Origin: Raillietiella orientalis
Lineage: Eukaryota
Direction: 5' to 3'
NCBI GenBank assembly: GCA_036172245.1
Contig: JAYWIR010000012.1
Coordinates: 434,001 to 498,000, forward strand
DNA: 64,000 bases
The stretch's first letter is position 1, and the number at the start of each line of letters is the position of its first letter. Shown one piece after another: positions 3,382 to 59,398 of the stretch. Under the pieces are notes generated by a model. That model saw only the letters and a list, made by a program, of their open reading frames with translations. It searched no databases and was not told the origin of the DNA. Made by a program: the position numbers and the translations under genes.

Positions 3382-5261
3382 TTCCTCGCGGCCTTCTTCT
3401 CCCGCTTCAGGGAGAGCCTCTTTTGCATTCGTTCTTCGAATTCCTGAGCGGAGAAAAGAAAAAAAGAGAGAAGAGAAAGAGGCGTTCATGGCAACGTGGA
3501 GGTGTATGCGATCCCACACAAACAAAGCCGATGGACCGTTCTTGGGGCTCGCGTTGGACGCGTCCTGCTCTCTGAGGCTGACCCTCCGATCTGGCTCCTC
3601 CTTTCTGGCCGCTTTTCCTAAGGGAATAGAACTCTCTCGACCCCTCCCCTCCTTCCTATCCCCGCAGCACGGTGGCGTTTCCCGTGCTCGCTCCAGGAAG
3701 GGCGCGCTTCTCAGTCGATGCCGAAGGAGCACCTCCAAAGAGCAGCCTGGCCGCAGCACTGAGGCGGGAAGACTTCCAGATGCATCGGGTCACTGGCGAG
3801 CAGTTCCCGGTCTGCTACCTCCCGGGGAGACCGAGAGGCGCGAAAGAGTACTCGGGAGGGAAGAGCCAAGTTTGCCATCGGCGAGGCGATCCGCCACCGA
3901 GACCGCCAGGCGCATCTGGTCCAGAGGCGGCGCTCTGCGAGCGGGGTGGGCGGGCGCTGAGCGCCATCTTCGAGACGCAGTGCGTACGAACAGGAGCGTC
4001 CGGGGACGCGCAACCCGCCTGCGGGCGCCTTCCGAGGTCAGCAGCGCCTCCAACCGGCCGAAGATGTCCGACCCGCCCTGAAGCGGTGATCTCTCGCCCG
4101 GCTGCGAGCGAGGGGAAACCTCCCGAGGAAGACGGCCAGGTGACCGCAGTGCCGTCGACTTCGGCCACATCCCCTTCCCTGTGGCCAGCGCCAATCCTAT
4201 CACAGCGCCGCCCAGGAGCTGCACGGAACACGCCGGGGAGGCTGAAGAGCGCAGGCGCCGTCCTTCCGACGGAATCCTGCTGGCAACGAACCCACGGGAG
4301 CGTCCCGCCCTCCCCTCCTGAAGGAACGGAAACACGGAAGCGAGTTCTCCAGTTTCTCGTCTCCTCGAATCCGAGGTTCTTATTTCGCTCCTGCTTCTCG
4401 TTCCCATGGTGCCGCCACGTCCGCGCCACCATGGGAACCCCGGTCTTTGCTTTCACTCTGCGGGCTGCTTTGCCGCTGCGAGGAGAGGAGGAATCTCTGC
4501 TCATTTCCCTTTGGCGGCAGTCTCCGGTAGAGGGCGAGTGGGGTGACCTTTGCGCCCCTCGGCAAAAACCACTTGCCAACTACAGGAGCCCCGCACCCTT
4601 CTTGCTGCACGCCAGCGGGCCGAGGAGTCTGACGAAAGGGCGGGCGACGACGCTCGGATTCCTACCCGCAGCGGAAGGAAGAACTCCCTGCAGACCCACA
4701 AAGCACCCGTTGCCCGCAAAAGTAAGGCGGCAACGTCACACGGTGGGGATGCGCAAGCATCGGTTTCGCGTTCCCTCCTGTACGCAGCTCCACCCTTCCG
4801 TCCCCTAACCTAACCCAACTCCAGCATCTCTCCTCCAGAAGGCCAGTCTGACCTGACACAGTCTTGGCCGAATGTCCGAAACGGCACTCCAAAGCTCGCG
4901 GTCTCAGCGACGGGAGGGACTCATCCCTTGAGTGCAGGCTCAGTGAAGCCTCCGGGAACGCGCCTCCTGCCTGCTGCAAGTCTTGTTCCCTTAGGCGTGT
5001 TTGCAGCCCGCTTCCCAAGGAACACTCCGCGAGCGGCAGCGCTTCACCCGCCATTGCGTCGCGCGCGTTGGAGGAACTGTCGGTCCGCCGTAGCTCCAAG
5101 AAGGTGGACGCGATCCTTTCGACTGTCCTCCACCCACCCCCCTCCACGATGTCTCGCTGTCCCTTTCCTTCGAAACTCTCAGAAGGAAGGGGGGGGGGAC
5201 AAGATCTGATGTTCCTCTCATTCTGATTCGATTCCCCAGGGTGGTGACTGTCGAAGAGAAG

Positions 5262-5640
5262 ATGGCCAGCCATTACACCGAAGAAACGTTCCCCGCCACC
5301 GCATTGCTAGCTGACTCTCAAGAAAGGAGCTTCGACTCGTACGGGGAGTTTTGCCACGAGTTGGTATACTCAGTGACCCGCCTGAACGGGTTCGTGAACC
5401 AAGTCGCCCCACCCGAGAGCGGTGGTCCCGCCGCTGCTGCCGCAGACCCCAACGATTACTGGATCCTGAAATCGGCGAGCCTGGGCGTGCCAGAAGCCAT
5501 TCTGTCCGAGAAGACACGGAACAAAGAGCAGCGGATTCGAAGACCCATGAACGCGTTCATGGTCTGGGCAAAAGTGGAACGTAAAAAGCTGGCCGATCAA
5601 AATCCAGACCTGCATAACGCTGATTTAAGCAAGATGTTAG
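5262..5640 (+). CDS. SoxF: SoxF-group HMG-box transcription factor, first coding exon (N-terminus and first half of HMG box)
   Basis: ATG at 5262 opens a frame reading ...[40 protein letters not shown]. It ends TTA G|gtaag at 5640/5641 (phase 1), the HMG-box intron position typical of SoxF genes. A pyrimidine-rich acceptor (ttccccag, ends 5239) precedes it, so an upstream exon probably exists. Confidence 0.95.
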
Positions 5641-20900: not shown

Positions 20901-21007
20901 TCATTTTATTTTATTTTTTGTCTTCATCCGTTTAACTCGACCGTGCAAGGCGCGTCCCCAATTCCAGAAGGGAAGTTGTCATGCCCATTGTTTTTGTGCT
21001 CTTCCAG

Positions 21008-21817
21008 GGAAGAAATGGAGGAGTCTGACCCCTACGGACAGGCGACCATTCGTCGAAGAAGCCGAGAAGCTGAGGATACTGCACATGCAGGAGCACCCCA
21101 ACTACAAATACAGACCGCGGAGGAAGAAGAATTCCAAGCAGAGGGCGGCGAGCAAGAAAGCCGACTTGCAGGACGCTCCCAGCAATGGTGTGTTGGTCTC
21201 GAAGCCGTTTGGATCGATCGTTCCCTTCTGCTGCTCGCCTTCGAGGAACTTCTCCATCTTCAACTCCTTCCACACGCCCGAGTCGTCTCCGAACTGCAGC
21301 CCAGAGCCCAGAATCTTCTGCCACAAGGAGGCGTACGAAACTTCCCCGAGCGCCCCGGTAGCGGACGCGAGCCAGCTGCCGGACAAGAACGCGGGACTGC
21401 CCTTCAGCGGTGCCGGCTTCCTGCCGACGCCCGAGATGTCCCCGACGGAGAGGGTCGGCGACCACTTCCCGTGCTTCGCCCGAATAAAGCCGCAGGGTCT
21501 CTCCTTGTTCTCCCCTGGGCTGCCGATGGAGTACGGCGACCTGCCTCACTTTGCCAACGTGTCCATCCCGAATTCTCCTCCTTGGTCCCAGTCGCATGCC
21601 GATTTCTCCGCTGGACTGAGTCCCATGAATTTCTGCATCGGATACGAGCTGGCGGAGGGCAGGACCAGACAAGGAGGCTGTGGCCAGAACGCGCTGCCTT
21701 ACGTCCACAGGAATCCTGCCCAGGAATGCCTGTCTTCGCCTTCCTCGTACAGCACTCCGGATGTCTGCAGCTCCCCTGCTGCCTTCATGAAAGAAGGACT
21801 GAGCTCCGCATACCTTG
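21008..21817 (+). CDS. SoxF: SoxF coding exon 2 (second half of HMG box and S/P-rich region)
   Basis: Acceptor ...gtgctcttccag|GG (phase 1 restores Gly) is followed by [40 protein letters not shown], then HTPESSP and LPTPEMSP motifs. Donor CTT G|gtaaat at 21817/21818, phase 1. Confidence 0.95.
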
Positions 21818-23441
21818 GTAAATTCGCTTTTCTTTGCCTGTTACCACCCCACCCACCCTCTCTCTGTCTCGGTTTTCGCGTCGCCGCAACGAAACCTCCA
21901 AAACTCGCGTTGACGAGGCCATCAAGGTTTGGTGGTTATCTTGGTTGAGGGATCAATTGAGCGCGTCTCGAAATGTCTTCCCCTTCTTGATGGCCTTGCG
22001 CTCCTGTTTGATGGAATCAGCGGGGCTGCTGAGAAGTGCACGGAGAACCTATCTCGTGGGGACGTCGGCCCCTCTCTCGAGCTGTAGATCACGAGAAGTA
22101 ACCATCGCCAGTTTAGAGATGAATTTAGTGTTTTTTACTGTTGGAAGCTTTCCCTTGCTCAACCAACGGTGGTGGCGAACTGATGCCTGGCAACGGTGCC
22201 TAAATCAACGAAAGCCTGGCAACAGTGCACGTACGAGAGGGAGCTGTGCTCAAAGCATCGCAGAATTCGAAAACACGAATTTGCTTTCAAGTCGTAGTAT
22301 TTAAAGAATAAACAAATTATAAACATAAGTATTATGATGATGTGAGAATGTAATGACAGTACGGTGTACAAATCATATATAATCACAGTGTAAATGTATA
22401 TATATAAAATAATTTACATATCAACCTAGAAGTAAAAAGAAATAGAACTTATTTCTAATCCAGATTTTCACCAATTGAACGAAGGACAAACTTTTCCCCT
22501 CAGTTGAGTTTCACGAGCTAAAAGATGCAGCCTTCGTTCCAGGACCAACTCGTGGCAACGCGATGCTGGTTGCCGTCACCCAGCCCGCGCTCCCAGTTTC
22601 CCTCCCGGTCACCGGGGTTACCAGTGCGGCTAGCCACGTGGCCAGCGCACGGACAAAACTTCAAAACGAACAAGAGCAAAAAAGTGTAGCCAGATGAAAG
22701 ATAAGCGAAGTTGCGCCCAAGTTTGCCGCGCGTCTGCAAAATTTTGCCGCGCTCCGAGAATGGGCCTTCGTGCCTCGGGTCTGCTGCTCAGGACTATTAT
22801 CGCCAGGGGGGAAGGCCTCATAGGACAGCCATCGAGCATCCTTGCAGATCCGCACGCAGCGAAAGGGAGCAAAAGTTTCCGATTCAGGTGCACGCCTGCC
22901 TGCGATGCGCAGGTCCAGAAGAGCAGCAGCATAACGCGTGTCGCATTGCTTCCCTGTGATATGTGGCGTGACAGTTAACCAACTCCTGTGACGCGTGAGC
23001 ACGCACAGGAAAGCACTGCGCAGCGTGTACATGCTGCACGTAACCGAATGAGTGATCTGCGCAGAGATGACGGCCACACGAAGAGGATCTGTGTTTGTTG
23101 GGCGTGACGGGTTCGTGGTCTTCATCATGCGTCGAAGACCCTGTGTTCACTCTTTTAACTCTTGAGGGTTGGGTTGCATAGGTGGGATTCGATCCGTTCT
23201 CTGGGTCGGCTGGACTGTCCAGCGAGGTTTGGGAGAATAGCGATGTTTTTGGTAGGTCCAAGTGGGGAGGGAAGTGGCCGAATCGTGGGTGATACCCATG
23301 GATTCGTTCGGAAGATGGTGCGCCTTCCTACGCCACTTCCTCGGAATTCGAGCAGCACCCTCCAAGCGATTTGCACGGCTCAACCTCAGTAGGACGAACT
23401 CAACTCGGAACTTTCTCTTCGAGCGAGTCCGCGGCTTAGTG

Positions 23442-33021: not shown

Positions 33022-33395
33022 AGATTGACATGGGGATTGGCACGTGGATTAGTATGTGGGTTATCATGAGGCTAAAAATGTAGGTTAATGTGTGGATTTG
33101 GATTTGGGTTGACGGGAGATTATCATGTAGGGTAACATGTGAATCAAATTGTGGATAATCATATCGGTTAGCACGTGGATTAACATTTGGATTATCATGT
33201 GGCTAAAAATGTGAGCCAGTGCGTGGATTAGCATTTGGGTTAATATGTGGATAATCTTTTGGTTCAACTTGTGAATTAGCATGTGGATTAACTGTGGATT
33301 ACCTTCTAGGTCAACATTGGATTGAATTGTGAACAGACACATGAATGAACATGTGTGTTAACGTGTGGATTGGCATGTTCATTAACATGTGGGTC
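33022..33395. repeat. Degenerate 12-bp minisatellite, consensus GATTA(A/G/T)CATGTG
   Basis: Units such as gattagcatgtg, gattaacatttg, gattatcatgtg and gattggcatgtt; explains the HMLI-repeat ORF on the - strand. Confidence 0.85.
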
Positions 33396-36229: not shown

Positions 36230-36440
36230 TCCCAGGACCGCAGCAAAGCACTTCCAGAGGGGCCGGAGGGCAACACAGTTTACTAGCAGGTGGGGGAGGG
36301 ATTCATGTTCCCCGCACCTGACACAATTGGGGTCCACACACACCCGCGTCCATTGATGACAGCGGGCGTTGCAAGGGAAACCCCAGTGCAGCACCAACAG
36401 CGCCGAGAGTCAGTACCCTCCTGCCGGGGATACGGCAGGG
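36230..36440 (-). mobile_element. Short inverted fragment of the non-LTR ORF2 zinc-finger region
   Basis: VLHWGFPCNARCHQWTRVCVDPNCVRCGEHESLPHLLVNCVALRPLWKCF. Confidence 0.8.
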
Positions 36441-36479
36441 CAACAGCTTGAGCTCTTTGCTCTTCAGCACCTACTTTGA

Positions 36480-38374
36480 GCTCGTGCTGAGGCGTACAGG
36501 GAGACTCTAGCTCGTCTGCCGTGCGTGTGCTCGGTACACCGGCCGTGTCTTCGTATGCGGACGATCTTCTGCTGCTGCTCCCCATGTCCACCCCCGCGTG
36601 GGCGCTCGAAGATTTCTTCGAGCTGTCAAGCCGCAGGACAGGACTAGAGGTGAACAGGGCGAAGTCGTCCATGGTTGCAGTCGATTTGTCGTGGACAGGG
36701 CAGCAGGACTGGTTCCTCCTAGGGATCCCCACGGTGCGGTACTTCAAGTACCTCGGTGTGCCGCTGGGGGACTACTCTTCGGCGGAAGTGTGGTCCAGCT
36801 GCCTCCAAAAGGCCGAGAAGGCGATCGTCCCGTTCCTGGATGGCGAGTTTTTCTTGCCATAACGGGCCGTGGTGCGGAACACGTTCGTGGCCCCCCTTTT
36901 TCGCCACTTGCTTTTCGTTTGCCCTCCACCCTTTGGTGTAAAGAAGCGGACGAAGGACCTCCTGAGGGTCGCCCTTTGGGGCAAAGGGAGGTCCCGAGTC
37001 CGCCTGAAGGATTTGTGCGCTCCGCGTCGCGACGGAGACCTCGGCCTCCTGGCGCTGGAGCGTCTGGGTCTGCAGCTCCAGTTCAGGACTTTAGCCCCAG
37101 TGGCGAAGTTGTGGAGCGCCAGCTGCTGCGAGCCCGCACGATACCTGGTTCCTCCAGCCAGCGGCTGCGCGGCACTGTCTACCTTCCCAGCGCGCCGCAA
37201 ACGTCGGTACCTGTTCCACTGCGGACTGGAGCTCCGGCGAGTGATCAAACTGACCAGGATGAACACCTGAATCTCCTGCCGGGCCGCGAACGGCACTTCC
37301 TGGTTGCAGGAAAGCCTTCGCATATGGGCCCAGATTGAGGGAGCGAGCCCGGAGTTGCGGCAGCGACTGCTGAACTCCTTTTACAACAGCTGCTCGCTGC
37401 AGGACATGATCGTGCAGCCCGCATCGAGTGCGTGGGCTGAGAGGACCTCCCTAGCCGCGGCTCTGCCCTACCTCAGGGAACACCTGGGTAGTAGTCAGCC
37501 TCGCAAAGTGGGAGGTCCGATGCAGACTCTTGTCGAGAGAGAGAGAACAAGGTGGTTGGACCACGGGCCAGCTAACTGACGCTGTGACCCCAAGTGCCCT
37601 ATCGAAGGGATTATTGCGCTAGGAAGAGCTGCTGAGCATCCCGCTTGATGTACTCCAGTGGTCCCTAGTGCGGAAGAATACCCGGACCCTCCCCCTGAAG
37701 TGGCAATAGTCGGCGTTTCTGGTGTTGCATTGGGGACTCCCCAGCAACGCCCGCCGATCTCACTAGACGAAGAGGGCAGTGGACCCGAATTGTGTCAGGT
37801 GTGGGGTACGGGAATCCCTTCTGCACCTGCTTGTTGACTATGTTGCCCCCCGGACCCTGTGGTTGCGCTTTGCAACGGCCCTAGGTGCACTCTTGAACTC
37901 TCCCAGAGACGTATTCAAGCGCCTCTTTGTGCGCGACGTCCTTTCTCCTGCCTCAGCCCTAGCAGCCCTTTTCTGCTTACGTGCGATTGTAGCGGTTTGG
38001 AGCAACGCCACTGATGGACCGCACGATAGGGACGCCATCTGCTCCACCCTACGCTTCCTGAATATGGCAGCCGGATGGTCCCATCTGGGACACATACGGA
38101 TGGAGCTTGCCAGCATCCTGGAAAGGATGTAGAGGGCGGCTTGCAGTAGAACGTGATCCCTTCCCTAGCCCACCCCTGCTTTTGTAAATAGTGTCTGCTT
38201 TATTTCTCTTTCTGTTTACCCCCTCCCCCTCCACTGCCGAGTCGAACCTCGCCAGCCTGCTTTCCGGAGACTCACTCAAGTTCCGAACACTTTCGGACGC
38301 TGTAGGACCTATAGCCCCACACATGCTTGTTTGTTTATTAAAATAAACTCCCCGGTGCACCCGAGTGTCAGAAC
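36480..38374 (+). mobile_element. 5'-truncated, decayed L1/Tx1-type non-LTR element (RT 3' half to 3' end)
   Basis: SYADDLLLL, GLEVNRAKS, FKYLGVPLG, LWGKGRSRVRLKDLCAPRRDGDLG, finger remnant CVRCGVRESLLHLLVD. Several stops; 3' terminus AATAAAC-TCCCCGGTGCACCCGAGTG. Confidence 0.88.
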
Positions 38375-45199: not shown

Positions 45200-46530
45200 T
45201 TGCGGTTCGATCTCGCGGAACTTGGCTGTCGGGAGACCCCGGCGCTGCTGACGGAGAAGCGGTCGAACCGCCCTCGAAAAGTCCGAGGCGGCTCTTGGCT
45301 ACGGCCCTCGATGGCGAGTTCGCCTTGCCGGGATGAGCCGCCATTTGAAGAGCTCTCGCTGACCCCTTTCTCCGCCCCCTCGGCTAAGCTACAGGCTCGG
45401 CGCCTGCCGGGGAACGCCCTCTGAGGATCTGCGATGTCCAGAATCCGCCTCAAAGACTGGGCGGCTCCGCGCCGGGACGCCGGCTTCGAAGTGCCGACGC
45501 TAGAAGGAATGAGGAGGGGGGGGAGGACTGCAAGTGCACTCCAGGACGGCGACCCCCTGAGCCAAGCGGTGGACTTCCTCGCGGTGCGCACCCGCGCACC
45601 CCACCCTTCGGCGCTGCTTCGGTAGCGAAGAGCCGCACTCCTTGCCGCGGAACTTCCCGGACCGCCTGGCACAGGACGCGGAGATTGTGGCTTCCCTCCG
45701 AGACAACGCGCCTCCCGCCTGGAAACCTACCTGTGGGTCTCCGACCACCCGAAGAACTTCCGCTCCCGGCTCCAGGAAACGATTGCTTCCTGGGCTGCTC
45801 CCGGAGGAACTTTTTCGTCTGCTGCGTCTCTTCCCCAGCCATCATCCCTTGGACGAAGGGCTTGGGCGAAGTAGTCGAAGCTCCGAGGGCAAGCAACGAC
45901 AGCTGACTGCCTTGGGGGTGAGAGCTTTCCCGCGCCATCGCAGGAGCGACAGAACCTCCGGGCGGCGGCTGGAAGGCGGGCGAGCCGGTGGACGGCGCCA
46001 CTCCTCCGCATCCCCGGTCAAAGGGACTCGACCTCCAGTGGTCCGAACTGCTGAGTGCGTCCTCCGAGGAGCCCGAGGTCCCCTCCCCAGAGTTTGAACA
46101 CGTCCGTGCCCCCACTGACGCGGAAGCAGAGCTCTTCCTACACTGGGAGGGGAGGGGGGGGTTCCAAGGCAACCGGCTAGGCGCTTCGCCTCCGGAAAAG
46201 GGGTGCTTCCAGCGGCGCCCTCCAAGAACTGTTCCCGGAGGCCTTATTTACTGTCCCTTCCCTCCTGTTCCGGAGTTTTATCCCGGTTGTCCGTGAAAGA
46301 ATGGGACGTGAAGTCGAAGATCTGCGCGGCTGCCCTCCGTTGTTTTTCTTTTTCCTTTTTTTTGCTTATTTTTGTTTATCATCCCCGCCCACCCGTTCCG
46401 GACTTCTGGAGTGACCGACCTGAGTGTCGGTGCACCCTCCCCTTGAACCTCCCTTTGTTTTCCTTCGGGAACCGCGTTCCCAATATATTTGTTTATTTCG
46501 AGTGAACGCTCCGGCGTGACTGGGTGATAA
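45200..46530 (+). mobile_element. Heavily decayed non-LTR copy
   Basis: RIRLKDWAAPRRDAGF resembles RVRLKDLCAPRRDGDL at ~37000. Shared 3' UTR hairpin CCGAC-N6-GTCGG (46415-46430) and terminal motif at 46501-46530. Confidence 0.65.
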
Positions 46531-46706
46531 ATCCAGCGCGTATCCACGTGGAGACCGTGCGCTTCCTCCAGATACTCTTCCGGGACCCGGAGATGAAGCA
46601 CCTCCTCGCGTCGGGCTGCGCGGTCGCTGATGTTACTCACGGCCAGGAGGAGCGCGCGCGTATAGGTCAGCAGTCCCGTTAATTCTGGGAGGGAAGCAGA
46701 GTGGAT

Positions 46707-47440
46707 GGGCCCAGGAATTCCGAACTCCGAAATCCCGAAAGGGAAACAAATACATATGCTCACTATATACGTTGATATATAAATCCACATATCGATTAAT
46801 GCATGGATTAATATATATTATAAACATTATAAAAAATAATTATTTGTCCTTATTCTTTATATTAACTTATATGTGTATATAGATTCACATGCAAATTTAT
46901 TTATAGATATTTTTTAATACTTATTAACATGCGTATTATAATTATAATTTATAATATCTTTGTTATATATAAATACATATGTAGATTAATATATGAATTA
47001 ATACATCTTATAAGCATTATGAAAAAATAAATATATACATTTGTTACATATTTTAAGATAATTACTAATATGTTTATCACTAATGTGTATATAGAGAGAT
47101 ATGTATTATACGATTATTTGAAAATACATCGGTTCAATATGAATATGTAGATTTATATATATTAAGAAAATAATATATGTGTGTTTACTGTCGATATTAA
47201 TATAATATTTTGATATATACATTAAAGTACATATTTGTTTCAACTTACATATTTATCAGCATATTATCGGTATAAATAATGACGATTATAAAACTAAATC
47301 CATGTTTATTAGATATTAGTATATGTTCATACATATAATATATATGTATGCAACGCCTATATAAATATCGAATTGCAGTCCTGTACATGTATAGAACGAT
47401 CAACATACCGAAAACAGAATTCATTACTTCTTAGGGATGC
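46707..47440. mobile_element. Partial copy of the AT-rich TIR-like element
   Basis: Begins GGGCCCAGGAATTCCGAACTCCGAAATCCCGAA, then a very AT-rich body; GAACGATCAA.AT.CC.AAA at ~47394 matches ~31527. Confidence 0.45.
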
Positions 47441-48977
47441 TGCCAAACTCTTGGAGATTAACATCAATAATTCAATAGAAATACTTGTAGATGCTACTCA
47501 AAAAATAAGATGAGTAAGTTTTTTCAAAGCATTCATGAATAAAGAATGGAACTAATTTTCCTCATCCTATGCATGGAGAAGCAAGCAAGCGTGCAGGTTT
47601 AGCATAATATAATCGAACAAAATAATAGTAAATGAGTCCGGGAATTTCACATGGTAAAAATTAGTATGAACTCTCCAAGAATTTTTCGAAGAAAACGAAT
47701 TTTTCCTAATGGAAGCCAGTTAAACAGATGACTCATAAAATATCCTCATATCAGTGATGTAAACACATGATTTCTGAAAACAACTTCGAAGTTTAAAATA
47801 ATAAGAAAGCAGAGGAAAACTACAAATACATGAGTCCTTTGAAAGAGCAAGGCTTACTTTTCAAGAATTCCAACTGATATATATGTGCATTTTGTTTTTA
47901 TCGCATCTGTTTTTCAGAGATGAGTAACGGAAAAAGTTCTTTTTAAAGAGGATCAAAAGTACTTTTTGCAGCAATATGTCGAGATACTAGCAGAACTTCT
48001 GCAAAACTCGAAATGAACTCGAAAATTGTTTTCAAATTTTTTAATAGTGCATGCCAATGTTCATGGTCTCATGCTTATTGCAAGAAAATCAAGATATATC
48101 CGGGCATTGTCTTTTAATGTGAGACTTGCAGTTTTCTCTCATTCTTATAGGCAGGAGACTTATCTCTCATTTCTGGCATTTAGAGAGATAGTATAATGTA
48201 CCCAACTGTATGGAATTTAAATCGTTTACTACCTTTTATGAGCTAAAATGATTCCTCTAAAGGAATTCATGTAGGTGTTTTAGGCACTGTACGAGAAGAG
48301 CAAGCTAAAATATAAAAGTCTTAATCGTAACTTAGGCAATTTCAAATGTAAAGACATCTCAGATGAGTATTCATCAAGTGCTGATGATGTTAGATTTTTT
48401 GTAAATAACCAAAAACTTCAAAGAGTACAAGTAAAACTCTCTATACTGGTGAAGTTTCTTATGCGCAAATGTATTCTTTTTGTATTTCTTATAAAATATT
48501 TTGTTATAATGAAGAATATATGAATGGAGAAATGCAATTTTCAGCTTTAATTATTATTCTTATCTAAATTATCTGTCTAAGTTGTATCTAATTACTGTAT
48601 CCATGTTGTCTTCGGGAGAAACTTATTCTCAAAATTTAGCCGAATAATATGAAATGTTTGGTATCTACAGTGTTCAGTTGTGTAATGCTGGTATTAAAGG
48701 TAGACAAAGACGTAGGTTTAATTTGTGGAGTGTCAAAGATAAGTTTTCCTTGAAAAATTTCTTCGGATAAAATAAAGAGCAAAATTCAAATTGGAATCAC
48801 AAATTACAAGCCAACGGATATCCTGCTGATCATCATAACACACAATGTAAACAATGATTTGAAAGACGCCTACGTATCCCAAAACAGTAACTCAGTTTAA
48901 TGTTTTGATGTGTGAGTAAATGAATTATGATCACAACTTTTTAATCGTACGTGAACATTAAACGATAACATTACAAA

Positions 48978-49020
48978 ATGTCAAGACACAGAAACGTAAG
49001 GTCTTTAAATTACCAAGAAG
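48978..49020 (+). CDS. HBS1L: HBS1-like translational GTPase, exon 1
   Basis: caaaATG, MSRHRNVRSLNYQE (HBS1L-type N-terminus M[AS]RHRNVR), donor G|gtaggc, phase 1. Confidence 0.9.
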
Positions 49021-49114
49021 GTAGGCATCGAAATTTCTGAACTTGAAGTTTGTGGGAATGTGGTAAAAATAATAACGTCATAATCACTTCATCATACATC
49101 ATTTCTAATTTCAG

Positions 49115-49183
49115 AATACGATGGATATTTTGATGTGTATGGGCATTCCATGGAGGAAGATTCATGCATTTCACCATCAATTG
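49115..49183 (+). CDS. HBS1L: HBS1L exon 2
   Basis: Acceptor tttcag|AA, EYDGYFDVYGHSMEEDSCISPSI (YGxSxExDxCISPS pattern of HBS1L), donor G|gtaaaa. Confidence 0.9.
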
Positions 49184-49323
49184 GTAAAAATCACTCATAG
49201 TACTTCCAATAATATGAAGCAGCTTTGAGAATTTATAATACAGAATCACGAAACTTTTACTTAAAAGATTCTTATACTTTCTTAAAGTTTGTTCCGCTAC
49301 TAATGTGCATCTCACTTTTCCAG

Positions 49324-49665
49324 AAGCACAGTATTTGTATGATCGTGATAAACACCATCAGATGTCCACTTTTGTACCTAATCAGGACAACATTCAAGAA
49401 GTTGATGAATACGAGGAAACACACATGTCAAATGATGCTGATATGACTGTCAAATGGAATAATCACAGCGATGAAAAACTTCAGTCATGTTTAGAGAAAG
49501 TCTTGGATGTAGTTGGAGAATCAGTGTCTGAGACTGAATGTCTAATTGCAATTAGGGCATCAGAGTACAATGTAGAAAAAGCCTTGGATTACATTTTGAC
49601 CAAGAAAGAGAAGGGCACAGTGCCATCATCAGCTTCTGGATGCAGCAGTTCTGCACAAATAAAAG
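49324..49665 (+). CDS. HBS1L: HBS1L exon 3 (HBS1 N-terminal helical domain)
   Basis: Acceptor ttttccag|AA, EAQYLYDRDK...LQSCLEKVLDVVGESVSETECLIAIRASEYNVEKALDYIL..., donor AAA G|gtaatt, phase 1. Confidence 0.9.
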
Positions 49666-49727
49666 GTAATTGGTTCAATTAGTTAACATAAGTAGGGAAG
49701 TGTATCCAAATTTTCATGAACTATCAG

Positions 49728-50551
49728 ATTGCAGACAGAGAACACTAAACATTGTTCAACATAGCTGGAAAGATGTATCTTTTGGAATGAGTGGCTCCCA
49801 GCTTCAACTTCCAAATAATATACATAAGAAAAAAGATATGTTGCAACAGAAAGAGTCAGAACAAAATACTTGTGACAATCTTCTGTGTTCTGACTTTCAA
49901 ACATTTTGTTTAACTAATCGTACTCTGCCAACTTCGAGCACAACCTTATTTCACCCAACAAAGTTACACCTGGACAATAAGCATTCTCAGGATTCATCTC
50001 CCTCCCTTCATGCTTTGGCTCAAATGCATCTGAGTGAAGTACAAAAGGACTGTGTTCCAGTAGAGGGCAGCACTTATACAGTTTCAAAAAGCAATGCATT
50101 TATTATTCCCTCTTTGGATACTGAGAATGTAGGCAGCCAGTCTCTGAGTTCTCCAATCAATCCTATTATAGATCTATCTGTGACTCTCAAATCATCTTCC
50201 TCTAATTCAAATTATTTACAAAATACTCCCCCAAGAAACACATCCACTAAACTGAAAGAAGGGCAAGCCTTCCTCTCTCAGCGACCCTCCATGCCTCTTA
50301 GAGGTTCTTATTTGTGGCCTATATCGAAATCCCATTCACCCATGAGATTTGTAATATGTGCCCCCAAATCAGACATGAAATCCGATTCTGTAATGTGTGT
50401 CAAATGTGATCAAAGGTGCCAGAAATTCATCCAGCAATTTGACTTTTCGTCTCCTTCTCCTGATGATATAGTACAACAAAAGAGAAAAAGAAACACATCT
50501 CATACCTTTCATACGACACATGTTTCCTCTTTTAATACGAATATGCAATAA
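49728..50551 (+). CDS. HBS1L: Alternative terminal exon of HBS1L giving a Ski7-like (HBS1LV3-type) isoform
   Basis: A 62-nt intron (49666-49727) ends at a phase-1 acceptor atcag|AT. The long open frame is S/T-rich and ends with FDFSSPSPDDIVQQKRK (motif at 50438-50473). The TAA overlaps AATAAA (50547-50552). Confidence 0.85.
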
Positions 50552-50614
50552 ATGGCATTTAGAACACATAAATGTGAAATGGCTTTGCATCTGATTTTAT
50601 CATCTTATCCTTAG

Positions 50615-50755
50615 GGGAACTGATGCCATCTATGGATCAAACACTTGGTAACCTAACTGATAGGCTGCGTGAAATACAGGTTGATGACGTTAAAGTGATA
50701 GCATCAGCTGCTGTGCCTCGAGGTGGTATGGCTGTGGATTTTTCCAGTTGTTCAG
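50615..50755 (+). CDS. HBS1L: HBS1L long-isoform linker exon (3' boundary uncertain)
   Basis: Phase-1 acceptor cttatccttag|GG is compatible with the exon 3 donor; open frame GELMPSMDQTLGNLTDRLREIQVDDVK.... How it splices to 50946 could not be resolved unambiguously. Confidence 0.6.
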
Positions 50756-50945
50756 GTATCCCATGTATGTAATATCATTGGTTAATAATGCAAGTGGTAG
50801 GCCTTCCTGAAAGGAATCTTCTTGCATCAGGTGACAAATCAGCTGAAAATTCAGAGAAGACTAACTCGACAGATGCAACATCAGGAGAACTCAGTGCCAC
50901 ATTTACAAAGATCCTTAAGTATCTGTTCCCATGTTTATTCTGCAG

Positions 50946-51205
50946 CTGAGCATCTCTGACAGGGAGAAGAATGATTCAGACACACTTACAGAATTCCAGA
51001 AGGAGCGTGGGTGTGCCAAAGAGAATCTCAATCTAGTTGTTATTGGTCATGTAGATGCAGGCAAGTCTACTTTGATGGGGCATCTTCTGTGTGAGCTTGG
51101 GATCGTCTCCAACCGACTCATGCATAAATATGAACAAGAAAGTCAGAAACTAGGCAAACAGTCTTTTCTGTATGCATGGGTTCTTGATGAAATGGGAGAA
51201 GAAAG
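50946..51205 (+). CDS. HBS1L: HBS1L G-domain exon (G1 P-loop)
   Basis: Acceptor ttctgcag|; [20 protein letters not shown]...[18 protein letters not shown]; donor AG|gtggga, phase 2. Confidence 0.92.
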
Positions 51206-51254
51206 GTGGGAATGATGGTCCAGGCACAGTATCATCTGCCTCTACACATTGCAG

Positions 51255-51484
51255 ATCCAGAGGTATAACAATGGATGTGGGACAATCAAGTTTTGAAACT
51301 GCACATAAAGTAGTGACTCTACTGGATGCACCAGGACACAAGGATTTCATCCCCCATATGATTGCTGGAGCTGCTCGGGCAGATGTAGGCATTCTAGTTG
51401 TTGATGCCACATGTGGAGAATTTGAAGCTGGTTTTGAGAGTGGAGGGCAGACTCGAGAACATGCTCTTTTAGCTCGCTCATTGG
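51255..51484 (+). CDS. HBS1L: HBS1L G-domain exon (G2/G3)
   Basis: Follows a 49-nt intron; RSRGITMD...[54 protein letters not shown]; donor G|gtaaga. Confidence 0.95.
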
Positions 51485-51526
51485 GTAAGAACTAGCCTTT
51501 CAGAAACTCCCACAACACAAAATTAG

Positions 51527-51937
51527 GTGTAACCCAATTGGCTATAGCTGTTAACAAAATGGATAATGTTGACTGGTCAGAGCAACGATTTCGTACTATC
51601 TGTGATGCCTTGTCCCGATTTCTGATTCGTCAAGTGGGATATCGGCAGTCAGATCTGAGTTTCATTCCTTGCTCTGGTTTAACAGGCATGAATCTCACTT
51701 CCCAAAATCAAAATAAGATGTTGCTAAGCTGGTATCATGGACCCTGCTTACTGGATGCAATTGATAACTTTCAAAGTGTTGTACGGCCACTAAAGAAGCC
51801 TTTGCGTTTTTCTGTGTTTGATGTATGTCGTGGTCCTGGTACTGGACTGTATGTAACAGGAAAAATGGAAAGTGGTTCAGTTCGATCTGGTGATAAAGTA
51901 CAGATAATGCCTTATGGAGAAATAGCTCAGATAAAAG
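51527..51937 (+). CDS. HBS1L: HBS1L exon (G4 NKMD, G5, start of domain II)
   Basis: Follows a 42-nt intron; GVTQLAIAVNKMD...FIPCSGLTGMNL...WYHGPCLLDAID...KPLRFSVFDV; donor G|gtcaga. Confidence 0.95.
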
Positions 51938-51983
51938 GTCAGATAACATTTCATCTGTTCCTGATGGTAACTGATTTTCTCAG

Positions 51984-52444
51984 GGATTCATGCAGGTGAA
52001 AATGAAGCCAAAGAATTTGCTTTTGCTGGTGACCAAGTCCAGCTAACTTTGTTGGGTATAGATGCTGCTCATGTAGGAATAGGTTCTGTGATTTGCTATC
52101 CAGCCAGTCCAATTAAGAGTGTAACTCGATTCTCAGGAAGAATTGTGGTTTTCAATACAGCTCAGCCAATTGTTGAAGGTGTCTCAGTGTTGTTGCACTG
52201 CAAGGCACTAACTGAACCAGCAACCATCTGCAGGCTGGTGCAACAACTGGACAAAACTACTGGAGCTGTGCTTAAACGCCATCCCCGTTATCTTTTGCCC
52301 AACTCAAGTGCAGTAGTAGAGATTGAAGTAGGCAGACCTATTTGCCTAGAATTGTATGCAGATATGAAAGAATTAGGTAGATTTATGATAAGACAAGCTG
52401 GACAAACCATTGCTGCTGGTATTGTGATCAAGGTTAGTTCATGA
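51984..52444 (+). CDS. HBS1L: HBS1L terminal exon (domains II/III)
   Basis: Follows a 46-nt intron; GIHAGENEAKEFAFAGDQVQLTL...RPICLELYADMKELGRFMIRQAGQTIAAGIV, stop TGA at 52444. A possible donor AAG|gttagt at 52433 could instead add a short last exon near 52589. Confidence 0.9.
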
Positions 52445-53594
52445 ATTCTCCAACTTCCTGGTGCATATGTGGTTGCAGATCTAACACATATCAAGAGTTT
52501 ATCTTGTGATTATCCCTTCCCATTCACAACTTTAAGATCAAAAGGATGGTGTCTCTCAGATAATTTCTTCTATTTGCTTTTTAACAGAAATCTGGGCATC
52601 AATGAAATACATCAGAAAATGTACAATTGTCATTTCATTTAGCTGGATTTTATGCATTGCAGTACTCAGATTGCATGTGAATAGAAGCACTGACAGAGTG
52701 TCAGGTGCTTGCTCATGTGCATTTTAAAGGATAAAAAGAAAGCTCAGACTAGACCTTTGTGATGTGTAAACTGATCCCTAAAAGTGATGCCATGATTTTT
52801 TCATTGGTAACCAGGAAACAGTTATGTCGAAGGGTAATGAGAAATGCAAGCTCTCCCTCAAATTATTTAGATTTCTCCCAACATACATTTTCTGTAAACC
52901 ATGATAAGCAATTACTTCTAGCTGCAAAGTCAGTTTTCCACTATTTTTTTTTTAAGAAACCAGGTATTTGAGTTAGTGGCTATCTGTGGTTTCCAGTAAT
53001 TCAGGGCATCAGCATGTGTACCAATTATATGCTAATGTTAGACAAATTCATGGAATCCCTTTCCAAACTCCTACATGCTAAGAATGAAACATTAGCAGAA
53101 CAAGTAAAGCATATTCAGGCAAGCTGTAGAATGATCATGCAGTAGCAGTACATGTGAATTGTGGAATCATGATTTACTAATCATGTACACTTTAAGGTTC
53201 ACCGCTAGTTAAGTTAGTAGCTAGAGACTGTAAATGTAGTAAATATGAAAACTAGTATGCGATATCAACAGAAACAAGTAAATAATCGGGATTTCCAGCG
53301 AGCTATCAACGCTTGCATCCTGTGAATGAAACTATTCAGCTCTGGAATCTAGAGAGCTTTCTTGCAAAAACATCTTCCATTAACACCATTCCATCTTCCG
53401 TTAACACCATTTTGAGCCCCATTCCTTCGCGATTAAGGAGAACGCAAACAACATTTTTGCTGAAGAAAAATTATTATAGTGTCAATTTCTTGGAAGATTC
53501 TTCGGAGTGCTTTCTAGAATTCTGAAACTTCTCAAGCAGCTCAAAGATATTCTAAACATTATGAAATAAGACAATTCTTGGGAACCAAACTTTC

Positions 53595-53608
53595 TCCTAG
53601 TATTTTGT
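53595..53608 (+). repeat. Candidate target-site duplication, left copy
   Basis: TCCTAGTATTTTGT, identical to 59385-59398. Confidence 0.7.
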
Positions 53609-53756
53609 TTTTCCCCAAGTCCCACAAGGGGTGGGGTAAATTTATTTTCATTTTTTTTTTTTTAATAGCATTCACACTACAGTCAGTCACATTCATACAA
53701 TACACTACTTGTTCTGTATTCACTGGAAGACCTTGGGATTCACTGAAGTTCTGCAC

Positions 53757-56700
53757 TTAGGGTGGGTATGCGGGTGTTTGGTCCGGGGCGTCGTCTTCAA
53801 TCCTCTTAAGGATGAGTCTGTACGTCCAGGCTGCTCGTCTTCCACAATTTCTTATGCCGATTTCCTTCTTCAGGAGTCCTTGCAGGATCTCCATCGGAGG
53901 TGCGGCTCTCCTGGCTTTCCTCATCTTCCACCACCGCACCAGAATGGCAGTGATGAAGAGGGCAATGGTCGTCCTCACCATGGGATTGTAACAGAGAACA
54001 TTACCATCCCCCTGAAACATCCCGGCTAGGATCTCCATCGTGGAACTGGTGGTGCGTCCAATGATCCGTTTAAGGATCAGCCAGTCGTGGAGCAATGTGG
54101 GACACGTCAGGATGTGAAGTCTGGTATCCGTGTCTCCACATGCCGGGCAGTCTTCGTCTCCTCTTCTTCTTGTGAAGTACTTTAGTCTGGACCCGCTCAG
54201 GATTCCTCCGTGATAGAACATCAGGAGGTTGTCCTGGCTGTCCGGCGGAGGGTCACTCCTCCATAGGGTCGTGCCGATCGCCAACAGGTTGATCCTGTTG
54301 CTTCCGTAGCGATTGGCCGCTTCCTGGAGGGCACTGGTGTCTTCATCTTGATCCTTTATCATTCTTCGGAGGTTTGTTTTGGTTACCCTGGACCACGCAA
54401 AGTCATCGTGGTTTATCCACACTTCGCGGGTCCGGTGGGTGAACCTACCTAGCATCTTCTCGATATACCGAAGTATACGAGCATGATGTAGGTGGCCTCC
54501 TTTTCTCCATTCCTGGATTCGTTGCAAGGTAACTCTGTGCCGCCGGTAGATCCATCCTCGGGTATCGTACGGGACCGGAAGCATCCAAGGGATCACGAGG
54601 ATGGACTCCTGTTGCCAGAGTTCCCTGCTTCTTGGCACGATCTTGATCTTGTACTTTCGTACCAGCAGTTGTTTCCTCCTCCAGGTCGGGTCGATGGTCA
54701 TCCACTCCCCTACTCGGCCTAGCAGCGCAGTCATCAGACCTTTCGAGTTGTTAAGCAACATCGAGTAGGCCCTATGCGCCACGTACGGCCAGTCGTCCCA
54801 TTGTTCGGCGATATCCAGGATGTGTCGCGTGTCCATGAGTGCCATGGAGTGTGCAAGCGACTTCATCCCGGTTCCACCTTCTTCTTTGGGACGACATAGG
54901 GGTTTCAAACGAACTCTTGGGCGATATTTGCCCCATAATGTCTTCCTTTGCAGTTTTTCCAGCTCCCTCGAGGTGTCCCTTTTCACTCTCGCAAAGGCCG
55001 CCCCGAAGAGCACCTTAGGAAGGAGGACTCCATTCCAGAGGTTGGCCTTGCGTTTCATTCCAAGGTCCTGTCGGGTGTACTTCGCTGCCTCTTTCGCCGT
55101 TTTCCCCAGGGTTTCATCCCACAAAAGCTTCGACGCAGGGCCGTCGCCAATGTAGACTCCCAGGTATTTGGCTGTGTCCACCGTTCGGAATCCTCTCCCC
55201 TTGAGGACGGAGAGGTCCAGGATTCCGACGGGCAAAAGTTGGCTTTTCCTTGCATTGATCTTTAATCCTAGTCCTTCTTCCATGAGCGTCACCACTTCCA
55301 GGAACGCACGCTGATTTCGTTCTCCTTTCATGAAGAAGAGAAGGTCATCAGCGTACGCCAGGTGGGTGAGCCGCTGGTCGTCGATCTGAATGCCACGTCC
55401 ACTCTTCTCGATGTACGAGGACAGCGCCTCCATGTAAATAACGAACAGCATAGGACTTAGCGAGTCGCCCTGGCGGACTCCTCGTTCCATCCTAATTGCT
55501 GTCGTGTCTTCGCCGTTGATCTTGATTCGGCAGTACTGGTTCTCGAGTACCAATCTCACGAGGGTGCTGAAGTATTCCGGAAGGCCCAGCTTGTCCAGAA
55601 TCTTCAGCAGCATCCCATGGTCGATGGAGTCGAAAGCCTTCTCCATGTCAGTGAACACCAGCACCAGGTCCTCGCCGACGTACCGGCTGAGTCCCACGGT
55701 GGCCTGGGCACACTTGACATTGTCCAACATGTGGCGTCCGGGCACCGCACATGTTTGGACCGGAGAGATGAGCTTCGGCATGACCTTGCCTAAGCGGTTC
55801 GACCAGATCTTTGCCAACCACTTGGCATCGGAGTTTAGGACGGAGATTGGCCTCCATTGGGCGACCTGCGTGAGGTCGCCTCCTTTCGGCAACAATCTCA
55901 TCCGACTCTCGTAGAAGGACTCGGGTAGTCTTCCTTCTTCACGGATGCAGAGGGTGAGCTGATGGAACAAGCGCAGGTAGGCGTGCAGGTACCGCTGATA
56001 GTGCGTGATGGGTACACTATCAGGGCCCACTGCCACGTCCTTCCGCAGTTGCCCAAAAGCCGTTTTCACCTCATCTTCGGAGAAATCCTCCTCCAGTTCA
56101 TCTCTCTGGAGATCGCTTGTCCTCTTCTCGAGGTAGCTCAGGAAAGTTCTCTGCATAGACTTGCACGTGTGTTGCCGTCGAAAGTGTTCTTCGTAGTGCT
56201 GATGGAATGCTCCCACGATGTCTTCCGACGTGTGCCGCTTCTGGCCGCCGTACTGGATGCAGAAGATGTCTGTCGCCAGATTCTTCTTTTCCAGCACGCC
56301 GACCTCCCCTTTCACATTATTGAAGACCTACCGACTCTCGTATTGATCGTAATACTTGGAGAGGGAGCGGTCTTGGATGTTGAGCTCCTGGTACGCTTCT
56401 TGCCTCAGTCGCTTGCAAAAGTACTGCATGTTGCAGAACAGGTGGAACCGATGCTTCAACCTGTCCCAGTCAGTGACTCTGCGGATGGTGGTGTCATGCA
56501 GAATCGCCTCGATCACCTCCTGGTGACAGGGAAGCATCTCAAACCAGGCGGGCATGCAGATGAGCGCCGCCCTAGTGGCCTTTCGCCGTCGAGGATTTTC
56601 CGTGCGGAGGGAGAACCGAACCAAAGGGTGATCGGACAGCAGGTGAGGAATGTCGCGAAAACCCTGGATTCGGTTGTCGATCTCCACGCTATGAAGGACA

Positions 56701-57269
56701 TGATCGATCGGTTTGTGGCTGGCTGTTCGCCACACGAGTCCGAAGTCGTCGGACAACCGTCGATACGCCTCTCTTTCTCTGATGTCTTGACGGTACTTGA
56801 TGTGGTCTAGAATATTCAGGTCACCTGCGACGATGACCATGTCCTTCGGTGCTACACGTTGGCGGAGTGCCTCGTGGAGAGCCTCCGCGCACCGATGCTT
56901 GTTCTTGTGCGGTCCGTACACGTTCACCAGAAACCGGTGAACGTTGTCGGACCAGGACAGTCGCACGCCGATTATCCTTCCAGCGAGTGGACAGAAGGTT
57001 TCCAGAAGGGTGTGGACGAGCTCGTTCTTGATGAGGATCGCCACACCCATGGTCTTATTTTGTCCCTCGCTGACAAACAGTTGCCCATTGAACCGGCGTT
57101 CCATCTCCTGGGCGTTTTGTTGCCCGAGACGGTGGGTTTCCTGTAGGCACACTACGTCTTGTCTTGCGATGGTCCGCAAGATTGTCTTCCTTTTGCCTTG
57201 GTCTGTCAATCCATTGATGTTCCAGGAGGCGATGTTTAGCCTCCTGGCGTTCGCTAGCGACGAGGACAT
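53757..57269 (-). pseudogene. Retrotransposon ORF2 (APE endonuclease, reverse transcriptase, C-terminal zinc finger) with one in-frame TAG
   Basis: APE motifs SWNINGL, CLQETH, NVYGP, AGDLN, IDHVL, SDHPLV. RT motifs WRPISVLNSDAK, DMEKAFDSIDH, GVRQGDSLSPMLF, YADDL, YLGV. Finger CPACGDTDTRLHILTC. The two track ORFs (57269-56328 and 56315-53757) are in the same frame, separated by a single TAG at 56330-56328. Confidence 0.93.
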
Positions 57270-57284: not shown

Positions 57285-59086
57285 CTAATGCTTCGCTTTC
57301 CTCAGCTTCTTCTGACGGGGAGACCTTTCGCGTCTCGCCGTCGAGGAAGCTGGCTTCTCACTCCCGGCATCGCTCTCCGTGCCGGTGTGGTCTGTGGACT
57401 CCCGGTCCGTCTCCATTGTGCGTTCTGCCCTGGCGATCGCTTTGCGCGGAAGTGTCTCGAGGGAGACCTTCGCGCAGTACGCTGCTTTCACTTCGAAAAG
57501 CTGGTTCTCTAGCTTTTCGCGCTCTTCTTGGATCACCAGGGTGTTGATTCCCTGTTGGGTTTCATTGATGCGAGTCAGGAGTTGCTCCTGCTGCACCTCA
57601 CTTTTCTCCCCCTGCACTTCTTCCGCAAGCTTCACCACCTCCTCGGTGAGCTGCACCGCCTCCTGCGATGTCGGAACGGTTTCGGTGATTTCCATCACCT
57701 CGCCTTCCGGCACACCCTGCTTCTCGCCAACCTGCTCTACTTCGGCCTTCTCGCCAACCTGCTCCTCGACCTGCGCAGCAGAGGATTCTTGCTCCTTCAC
57801 GAGCATCCTCCTCTTGCCGCCCTTCCCCACCGTGGTGAAGCCGTCCGCCGAAACTGGGGCTGCCTCCTTCGCCTTCCTCTGCTTCATCGCCCTTTGAGGT
57901 TTGATTACCTCCTCCAACACCAGTGTCCTAACTGGGGATTGACCCCGCATCGTTCTGTAAACTCCGGGCAGCACCACTTTGCATGCCCCGGAGACTTGCA
58001 GAACGAACACACCTCCGGCATGCTGCAGTCCCGCACCTGGTGGCCCTGCTTCCCACAACGGAAGCACTTGGCCCTCGGGCAGACTCGCTGCCGGTGTCCA
58101 AAGGTTTTGCAGCCGTTGCAGAAAACTGGCTGCGCCCTATATCGAACGGAGACTCCCATGTCGTCCCCGTCGAAGTAGATCATCCCAGGAACCTGGACTT
58201 CCTCCTTCAACTTCATCTTCACCGTCGCCTCCCCCGAAAAGATCTTTCCCGATATATTGTGGAAGTTGCTGTCCAGTACCTCGCCGTACTGCGACAGTTT
58301 CCTCCACACAGCCCTTTGGGTGACGAACGGCCCGAGTCCGCTCAGGAATAGGGTGGTGTACGGCATTTCGCCGACGCCACACACTATCCTGCCCTGGATG
58401 TTGATCCCTTTTTCAATTAGGGATTCCCTTATTTCTTCACAGTCGGTGTACACTGTGAATCCCGAGGTGTTCGGGACGATCGCCTGCAGGCGGTCAAAGT
58501 CCACTTGCTGTTTGTAGAGAGCCAGGTATACCTCTTTGATGTTGTTCATTTTTATAAGTCCAGTCTTGAACGTGACCGTCTTCACGTTCGGCCCTAGTTG
58601 AATTATGGGCTCGTCGATGTCTCGTATCGGCCCAGACTCTGGCTTCCCGAATTTCCTCTGCGGCTGGGTGGTCGCCGTCCCAGCCGCCACCGCCGCATAG
58701 GAAAAAGCTGCCGCCGCTGCCGGTGGCCGCCCCACGGTCGCAGCCACCGCGCAAGATGGCGTCGCGTCACTAGCAACGGTGGGGCCTACGGGCCCTCCCG
58801 TCGCTACGGCGACCGCCGTCGCCGGGGACGCCGCCGCCGCCACCGCCATCGTCGTCTCCACCGCTTCCATCGGAGTCGCGCCGGAAGAAACACACGATTG
58901 CCCTACCTCCATGGGCTGTGGCTTCTCCGTGGCTCCCATCCACCGCTGCTCTTGCATCTTGACGGAGTGCTGCTGCACCGCCGCCGGGGAGGGTCGCGAC
59001 TCCTCCACCTTGGACTCCCTTTCGCTGCTTCTGCTGCTGCAGTCGCTGTGGGACGTCCTTGGTTGCGCACTCACTGTTTTTTTCAC
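57285..59086 (-). pseudogene. Retrotransposon ORF1 (gag-like, RRM-like region and three CCHC zinc knuckles) with one frameshift
   Basis: CNGCKTFGHRQRVC, CFRCGKQGHQVRDC, CSFCKSPGHAKWC. First ATG is at 58957. The frame shifts near 57960 into the E/Q-rich coiled-coil-like C-terminal part (ORF 58067-57285). Confidence 0.88.
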
Positions 59087-59094
59087 TCAGCACT

Positions 59095-59221
59095 TGCCCT
59101 CTAGGGGCACGCAAAAATTGCCGCGGCAGTGATGTTACTCACTGCCTTGGCGGGGTATTGGGTAAAGTTTTCAACTAGCAATAATCACGGCTCAGTCGCC
59201 TTCCTCGCCTATGATACTGCC
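59095..59221 (-). ncRNA. U4 snRNA-like sequence (lacking the canonical 5' U6-pairing arm) in the retrotransposon 5' leader
   Basis: Minus strand reads GGCAGTATCAT-AGGC-GAG-GA-AG-GCGA-CT-GA-GCC-GTGATTATTGCTAGTTGAAAACTTTACCCAATACCCCGCC-AA-GGCAGTGA-GTAACA-TCACTGCC-GCGGC-AATTTTTG-CG-TGCCC-CTAGA-GGGCA. This is the U4 order: k-turn stem-loop, TGCTA[A/G]TTGAAAACTTT core, central stem, Sm site, 3' hairpin. Match made from recall of metazoan U4, not from a search. Confidence 0.88.
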
Positions 59222-59384
59222 CGTGCCCTTCTCCTTTTTGACCAAGTCCTTAAAGGCTGCGGTCCTTAAAGTCCTTAAATACAAGTTTGAATTTATAATT
59301 TCGCAGATTCTGTCGTCTACTACTTTTTGCATGCCCCACACTTCCTGTCAAAGTGCGAACTGTGACATTTTCCAGCTTTCTGGA

Positions 59385-59398
59385 TCCTAGTATTTTGT
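59385..59398 (+). repeat. Candidate target-site duplication, right copy
   Basis: TCCTAGTATTTTGT, identical to 53595-53608. Confidence 0.7.

Follow-up and report, generated by a model that had tools for sequence, protein, structure and literature searches.

Retrocopies in which a small nuclear RNA (snRNA) is joined to LINE-1 have been described in mammals, as U6/L1 chimeras and, more rarely, as chimeras with U1, U2, U4, U5, U3, or 5S (Law and Burns 2025). In Magnaporthe grisea, a tripartite chimera of WEIRD, Mg-SINE, and the MGL LINE is flanked by identical 14-bp direct repeats and was explained by two template jumps of the LINE reverse transcriptase (Gogvadze et al. 2007). SINEU are crocodilian SINEs with heads derived from U1 or U2, which were most likely added by template switch (Kojima 2015). 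Finally, Keno, with an APE-type endonuclease, and Utopia, with a restriction-like endonuclease, use U2 snRNA genes as insertion targets (Kojima and Jurka 2015).

The locus reported here lies in a 64-kb stretch of DNA (the window; all coordinates are positions in it) and carries a U4 snRNA homology on the 5' side of an L1-like LINE. As in the mammalian chimeras described by Law and Burns, a sense snRNA sequence stands directly 5' of the LINE, the 3' end is A-tailed, the target is A/T-rich, and a short repeat flanks the whole. Unlike those chimeras, the present LINE is full-length with both ORFs, the U4 sequence is clipped by 6 nt, seven A residues (A7) lie between the two parts, and a further 150 nt precede U4; moreover, the host is an invertebrate-like animal and the element is a distant L1-like one, with at most 33% identity to database reverse transcriptases. 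With the Magnaporthe chimera, which can be compared at the level of its description in the abstract, the locus shares the head-to-tail fusion of three retro-copied RNAs and identical 14-bp repeats, but the partners in the fungus are others and include no snRNA. SINEU likewise have an snRNA-derived 5' end on a retroposon and raise the same question of transcription without an internal snRNA promoter; however, as described, they are short, non-autonomous, multi-copy elements with U1 or U2 heads, whereas here a single copy of an autonomous-type LINE is joined to U4. Keno and Utopia are LINEs tied to a spliceosomal snRNA sequence, and Keno, like the present element, is of the APE type. These elements, however, split their target, so that target sequence follows their 3' end, whereas here U4 is found only on the 5' side and is whole to its 3' end.

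The U4 homology and its 5' end

The U4 family (RF00015) was the sole Rfam family that reached its gathering score in the 64-kb window. The match, on the minus strand at 59234..59096, scored 84.6 bits (E 2.3e-17) against a gathering score of 46 and covered positions 1-138 of the 138 in the model; the sequence thus belongs to the U4 snRNA family in sequence and structure. An earlier note, made from the sequence letters, had proposed a U4 architecture at this place from a core, an 8-bp stem, an Sm site, and a terminal hairpin. The search with the Rfam U4 model bears this out, and all four parts lie where the note had put them; of its 127-nt U4-like stretch, the identity stands but the length does not, the model match being 139 nt.

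On the RF00015 alignment, the homology begins on the minus strand with the 5' stem-loop that holds the K-turn, at 59215-59184, and continues with the stretch that pairs with U6, at 59184-59166. The central stem-loop spans 59151-59120, the Sm site follows at 59119-59112, and a 3' hairpin occupies 59109-59095. The core was searched with 37 of its 38 bases (59185-59149; the g at 59186 was read from the sequence) and gave a single perfect match, while none of 100 shuffles contained it. As read from the sequence, the central stem consists of eight perfect pairs (GGCAGTGA/TCACTGCC), the Sm site is AATTTTTG, and the 3' hairpin is formed by TGCCC and GGGCA. In the alignment, the Sm site (AAUUUUUG) agrees at eight of eight positions, with the central and 3' hairpins flanking it as expected of a functional U4 snRNA gene. 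The 139 nt, folded as a free strand, have a predicted minimum free energy (MFE) of -50.7 kcal/mol (z -2.9), and one of 200 shuffles folded as well.

Conserved positions were defined as the upper-case consensus positions of the RF00015 alignment and were compared by hand. None of the five agrees in model positions 1-6, all nine agree in positions 7-19, and 45 of the 49 from position 7 to the end agree. Thus, the sequence has a breakpoint rather than a gradual decay, and no intact gene 5' end is left. The U4 homology proper covers model positions 7-138 (59096..59228), and the six bases GGAGAA aligned to model positions 1-6 (59229..59234, minus strand) represent junction filler or foreign sequence. 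The first positions of U4 (model 1-6) form part of U4/U6 stem II, and in this region the intact 5' end expected of a functional U4 snRNA gene is absent.

The four mismatches past model position 7 are located at positions 29 and 31 in the K-turn bulge, at position 71, and at one base after the Sm site. The K-turn of the 5' stem-loop, with its bulge and tandem G-A pairs, is the binding site of Snu13/15.5K. In the present copy, its tandem G-A positions (model 32, 33, 43, and 44) agree with the consensus, and its stem pairs, with changed bases; both conserved bulge positions (29 and 31) differ from the consensus, and the loop is one base shorter. The unusual K-turn bulge and the "missing" 5' end might in principle be lineage features that the host's own U4 shares.

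The LINE and its surroundings

Downstream of the U4 homology and on the same (minus) strand is an L1-like LINE, in which an ORF1 with CCHC motifs is followed by an apurinic/apyrimidinic-type endonuclease (APE) and then by a reverse transcriptase (RT) domain. The earlier claim of a same-strand LINE downstream of U4 is confirmed by these ORFs and Pfam domains; the U4 homology had also been placed immediately upstream of ORF1, and it is indeed upstream, but not immediately, as the U4 match ends 138 nt before the ORF1 ATG (58957). As read from the sequence, 12 nt (59095-59084) and then A7 (59083-59077) follow the end of the U4 model. This stretch (59077-59095, minus strand) may be either a short 3' extension and oligo-A tail of a copied U4 RNA or the start of the LINE leader. 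A GC-rich leader then runs from CAGTGAGTG to the ORF1 ATG (58958..59076, minus strand; 61% GC over 58958-59095), and the ORF1 frame is open back to 59086. The 8-mer CAGTGAGT is present twice on the minus strand, once in the U4 central stem (59135-59142) and once at the start of the leader after A7 (59063-59076). GTGAGT would serve well as the core of a 5' splice site, and CAGT is similar to LINE starts of the initiator type.

ORF1 (57905..58957, minus strand) encodes 350 aa with CCHC zinc knuckles near the C-terminus (zf-CCHC, E 6.6e-05). It is overlapped at its end (57905-58136) by an open frame of 283 aa (57285..58136, minus strand), which lies in another frame than ORF1 and in the same frame as ORF2, is rich in E, K, and Q, has no Pfam family, and is closed by a TAG at 57287-57285. 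This frame may represent the tail of ORF1 after a frameshift, an independent middle ORF, or a stretch that extends ORF2 at its N-terminus. The first part of ORF2 (56328..57269, minus strand) starts with an ATG at 57269 and encodes the APE-type endonuclease (Exo_endo_phos, E 1.6e-18) up to an in-frame TAG at 56330-56328. The second part, in the same frame (53757..56327, minus strand), encodes the RT (RVT_1, E 1.8e-32) and a C-terminal Cys/His motif and ends with a TAA at 53759-53757. Thereafter comes a 3' UTR of 93 nt (53756-53664), which ends in ATTAAA and runs into A13 (53663-53651), so that this 3' part as a whole occupies 53651..53756 of the minus strand. Over about 4.4 kb, the ORF2 frame has, before its terminal TAA, no stops other than two in-frame TAGs, both at domain borders: one (57285-57287) precedes the endonuclease domain, and the other (56328-56330) lies between the endonuclease and RT domains. 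We set aside stop-codon reassignment as their cause: five codons past the former, an ATG opens the endonuclease, and this TAG is thus probably an ordinary ORF end, whereas the latter looks like a lesion.

The order of the CCHC-type ORF1, APE, and RT, together with the A-rich 3' end, is that of the L1 superfamily. The RT has 108 relatives among database proteins at E <= 1e-3, the best of which are only 26-33% identical; these relatives are L1-like, and many of them are plant L1-type proteins with a zf-RVT domain. Judged by its sequence, the element may be placed in the L1 superfamily, a placement at the superfamily level, which covers both the L1 and the Tx1 clade.

The short distance between the U4 homology and the LINE bears on the possibility that U4 is a resident gene or pseudogene, downstream of which the LINE inserted by chance or by targeting U4; the 14-bp repeat described below would then be a chance match, or the block would be a 5' transduction. 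Past the 3' end of U4, it takes no more than about 20 nt to reach the LINE leader, which thus starts where snRNA genes have their 3'-end signals, and this would suit such an insertion. That elements targeting snRNA genes exist (Kojima and Jurka 2015) also speaks for it. However, the copies of Keno and Utopia are followed by fragments of the target gene, and the snRNA targets listed as of 2015 in the available text are only U2, U1, and U6 (Kojima and Jurka 2015). At the present locus, the 3' junction carries no target sequence: no U4 was found on the 3' side of the LINE in 53300-53800, where none of 10 sub-threshold Rfam matches was to U4, and the U4 sequence on the 5' side is uninterrupted as far as its 3' terminus. 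Furthermore, the 5' end of U4 is absent (0/5 conserved positions), so that this is no intact gene. A resident U4 gene or a targeted insertion is, in our view, unlikely.

Several other features of the window were observed. Apart from the element itself, a tblastn search of the window with five relatives of the RT detected a single weak RT-like stretch (36427-37096, plus strand); this stretch was matched by two of the five relatives (best E 8.3e-08) and points to a second, decayed LINE fragment. An HBS1-like gene with HBS1_N, GTP_EFTU, and eEF1A C-terminal domains (49239-52444, plus strand) ends about 1.1 kb from the LINE, on the opposite strand. The best named relatives of this gene, from a bivalve, spiders, and an octopus, are about 50% identical. 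The gaps between its aligned coding blocks measure just about 46 and 61 nt, as would suit an animal genome of compact build. When the 142 frames outside the LINE were scanned with Pfam, the domains detected were limited to the HMG box and HBS1/EF-Tu. Two frames on the plus strand, at 5094-5792 and 20803-21945 and thus about 15 kb apart, encode halves of an HMG box that complement each other (2-42 and 36-69 of the profile); they may be exons of one Sox/HMG-type gene or belong to two separate genes. Positions 1-46000 contain many long frames on both strands with almost no Pfam domains and have a GC content of mostly 52-63%, with a dip to about 42-44% at 30-34 kb. The composition changes sharply from this region to 46001-54000, which includes the HBS1-like gene and has 33-41% GC. 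A 48-bp tandem repeat (3.1 copies, 68% matches) lies in an AT-rich stretch at 33150-33299.

Flanking repeats, A-runs, and outer segments

The composite is enclosed by an exact 14-bp direct repeat, read as ACAAAATACTAGGA on the minus strand, with the upstream copy at 59385..59398 (16 of 17 positions agree if it is extended to 59401) and the downstream copy at 53595..53608. The earlier note had placed U4 about 150 nt inside 14-bp repeats, and the exact copies found here agree with this. A match of 14 was reached by one of 500 dinucleotide shuffles of both flanks and by none of 31 control window pairs at equal spacing, among which the largest match was 11. With some reserve, we regard the repeat as a real target-site duplication. 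The single shuffle that did yield a 14-mer is a point in favor of a resident U4, for which the repeat could be due to chance. An extension of the repeat into the 5' segment was also tried and rejected, as it gains only 2.5 score units with gaps.

Between the upstream repeat and the U4 homology is a segment of 150 nt (59235..59384, minus strand) with 40% GC, which contains three TTTAAGGAC units and ends in GGACTTGGTC and A5 (59239-59235). No Rfam family was found in it, even at E up to 10. The three TTTAAGGAC copies lie within 34 nt (59246-59279, minus strand) just upstream of U4, and a degenerate form, TTGTGGGAC, is present in the 42-nt tail. This tail (53609..53650, minus strand), which lies between A13 and the downstream repeat, contains AATAAA (53646-53641), a C/G-rich inverted stretch, and GGACTTGGGG with A4 (53612-53609). 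Either the LINE truly ends with this tail, or a separate short retrocopy was split by U4 and the LINE and has its 3' part here.

Aligned with the 42-nt tail, the final 60 nt of the 5' segment gave a score of 11, which one of 656 control windows reached; this likeness rests on about 20 nt and on that control rate. The two sequences share their ending, namely GGACTTGG, two bases, and an A-run. When the whole 5' segment was aligned globally with the LINE 3' end, two of 500 shuffles, and none of 394 and one of 395 control windows, scored as well; the MAFFT alignment of the two is weak. The first 105 nt of the segment match the 93-nt 3' UTR of the LINE at chance level (296 of 595 controls were as good). 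We dropped the idea that the 5' segment is a copy of the LINE 3' UTR, the signal being confined to the last 60 nt and the 42-nt tail. Instead, the segment appears to be the terminus of a further retro-copied RNA with an A-tail and resembles neither a U4 promoter nor an obvious LINE 5' UTR. An upstream sequence that ends like a retroelement tail with A5 also argues against U4 being a resident gene.

Every junction has an A-run: A5 (59239-59235) directly before the U4 homology, A7 (59083-59077) 12 nt past its 3' hairpin, A13 (53663-53651), and A4 (53612-53609). The GC content drops at both inner borders, from 0.55-0.61 inside to 0.40 and 0.44 outside. These features might be explained by separate, successive insertions. 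An older retrocopy, consisting of the 150 nt and the 42-nt tail, would own the 14-bp repeats, and an A-tailed U4 retropseudogene and then the LINE would each have inserted into an A-run, so that U4 and the LINE were never part of one RNA or cDNA. L1-type endonucleases favor A/T-runs, and the presence of an A-run at every junction would be expected from such insertions, as would the drop in GC content at the inner borders. A13 after ATTAAA looks like a normal LINE 3' end, and the 150-nt segment is related to the 42-nt tail and not to the LINE 3' UTR, both of which suit this explanation. However, two or three independent hits within about 20 bp would be needed, and target-site duplications made up of A residues are unverifiable. 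The one candidate for an inner duplication, TGAAAAAAA against TGAAAATAAA, is short, imperfect, and A-rich, and was not counted. We regard successive insertions, and with them the separate histories of U4 and the LINE, as possible though fairly unlikely.

Origin of the composite and its meaning

The explanation that we prefer, to which we assign about half of our confidence, is that the U4 part is not a U4 gene but a reverse-transcribed RNA copy, which was joined to the full-length LINE by the LINE's RT and is a passenger at the junction. Its basis is the U4 identity, the breakpoint, the A-runs, the repeats, and the likeness of the tails, all of which are observed at the locus; from them we infer a joining at the RNA level and an order of events. 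A U4 RNA that lacked its first 6 nt and carried a short 3' extension and oligo-A (A7) would have been reverse-transcribed, and the LINE's own RT would have joined this copy to the 5' end of the full-length L1-like LINE. One possible route is a single target-primed insertion, in which the template switched from the LINE RNA to the U4 RNA and then to a third, A-tailed RNA; the product would be a tripartite chimera flanked by a 14-bp target-site duplication. Alternatively, the 14-bp repeats may belong to an older short retrocopy, in one of whose A-runs a chimera of U4 and the LINE landed. From this single locus, the two routes fit equally.

The breakpoint, the A-runs, and the tail-like 150 nt are the marks of reverse-transcribed RNAs joined end to end, which LINEs are known to generate as by-products of their activity (Gogvadze et al. 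2007; Law and Burns 2025). Because joined A-tailed RNAs would leave A-runs, the A-runs at the junctions count for the joining. Furthermore, as in a chimeric retrocopy, a sense snRNA copy stands 5' of the LINE on one strand, short direct repeats flank the block, and the 3' end has an A-tail; with the 150 nt 5' of U4, the block is tripartite. A7, however, could equally be the start of the LINE leader, and we know of no A-run reported between the snRNA and LINE parts of human chimeras. A further point against a joined-RNA origin is that human chimeras usually have a 5'-truncated LINE and often a full-length snRNA (Law and Burns 2025), whereas the present locus has a full-length LINE and a clipped U4.

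The composite of U4 and the LINE is known from one copy, in which, at the sequence level, a one-off event and a propagating lineage would look alike. A blastn search for a second LINE copy within the 64-kb window gave the self hit only. In metagenome contigs, a search with the RT protein gave 50 pattern matches, none of which was confirmed, and a pattern of the U4 core and central stem gave no match. Our search of the literature found no paper on a LINE headed by U4 or targeting U4, and the supplementary tables of the cited work (Table 2 of Law and Burns; the Kojima papers) may list U4 cases.

These results bear on another explanation, the one favored by the earlier note: the U4-derived module, either by itself or together with the 150 nt, would be fixed in the 5' leader of a LINE lineage that is active and passes it on to its copies, and it may load Sm proteins and Snu13 onto the element RNA. 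The location of U4 inside the 14-bp repeats and the full length of the LINE part are consistent with this, as is the preservation of the module: from model position 7, agreement extends to 45 of the 49 conserved positions; the stretch that pairs with U6 is intact, as is the Sm site with the hairpins on either side; and in the K-turn the tandem G-A pairs are retained, while the stem has changed bases but is still paired. In addition, near-full-length LINE-1 chimeras may stay competent for retrotransposition and thus provide a route to new 5' UTRs (Law and Burns 2025). On the other hand, according to the same source, U6/LINE-1 chimeras do not go on propagating, and a general passage of Kojima (2015) states that snRNA genes have no known internal promoter. 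At the present locus, the lack of a second copy within the window by blastn, the absent U4 5' end, the difference at both conserved K-turn bulge positions, and the in-frame TAG between the endonuclease and RT domains of this copy all argue against an inherited leader, and the A-runs at the junctions resemble what a joining event would leave behind. We consider it rather improbable that the module is inherited in this way. If the composite is, or descends from, a master copy, the LINE lineage might keep the U4-derived domain, with its intact Sm site and hairpins and its altered K-turn, for snRNP-like handling of its RNA, and this we consider more doubtful still. Were it true, the element RNA could be subject, for example, to Sm-ring loading, cap hypermethylation, or nuclear retention or re-import.

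Taken as a reverse-transcribed U4 copy joined to the LINE, the locus would be a case of an snRNA/LINE chimeric retrocopy, a kind that, by comparison with the published descriptions available to us, is already in print. For an snRNA/LINE chimera, however, the full-length LINE, the clipped U4, the third part, and the invertebrate-like host are unusual. The locus would thus be an example, from beyond mammals and fungi, of a LINE RT that attached a spliceosomal RNA to a full-length element, and probably a third RNA as well. The joining of snRNAs to LINEs is one proposed route by which LINEs and SINEs obtain new 5' ends (Kojima 2015; Law and Burns 2025). If the U4 leader proves to be common to many copies in the host, the element would provide the first case of an snRNA-derived head on an autonomous LINE, or on any autonomous retrotransposon, and such a shared leader would let one ask whether mRNAs that bear an Sm site receive snRNP-like handling.
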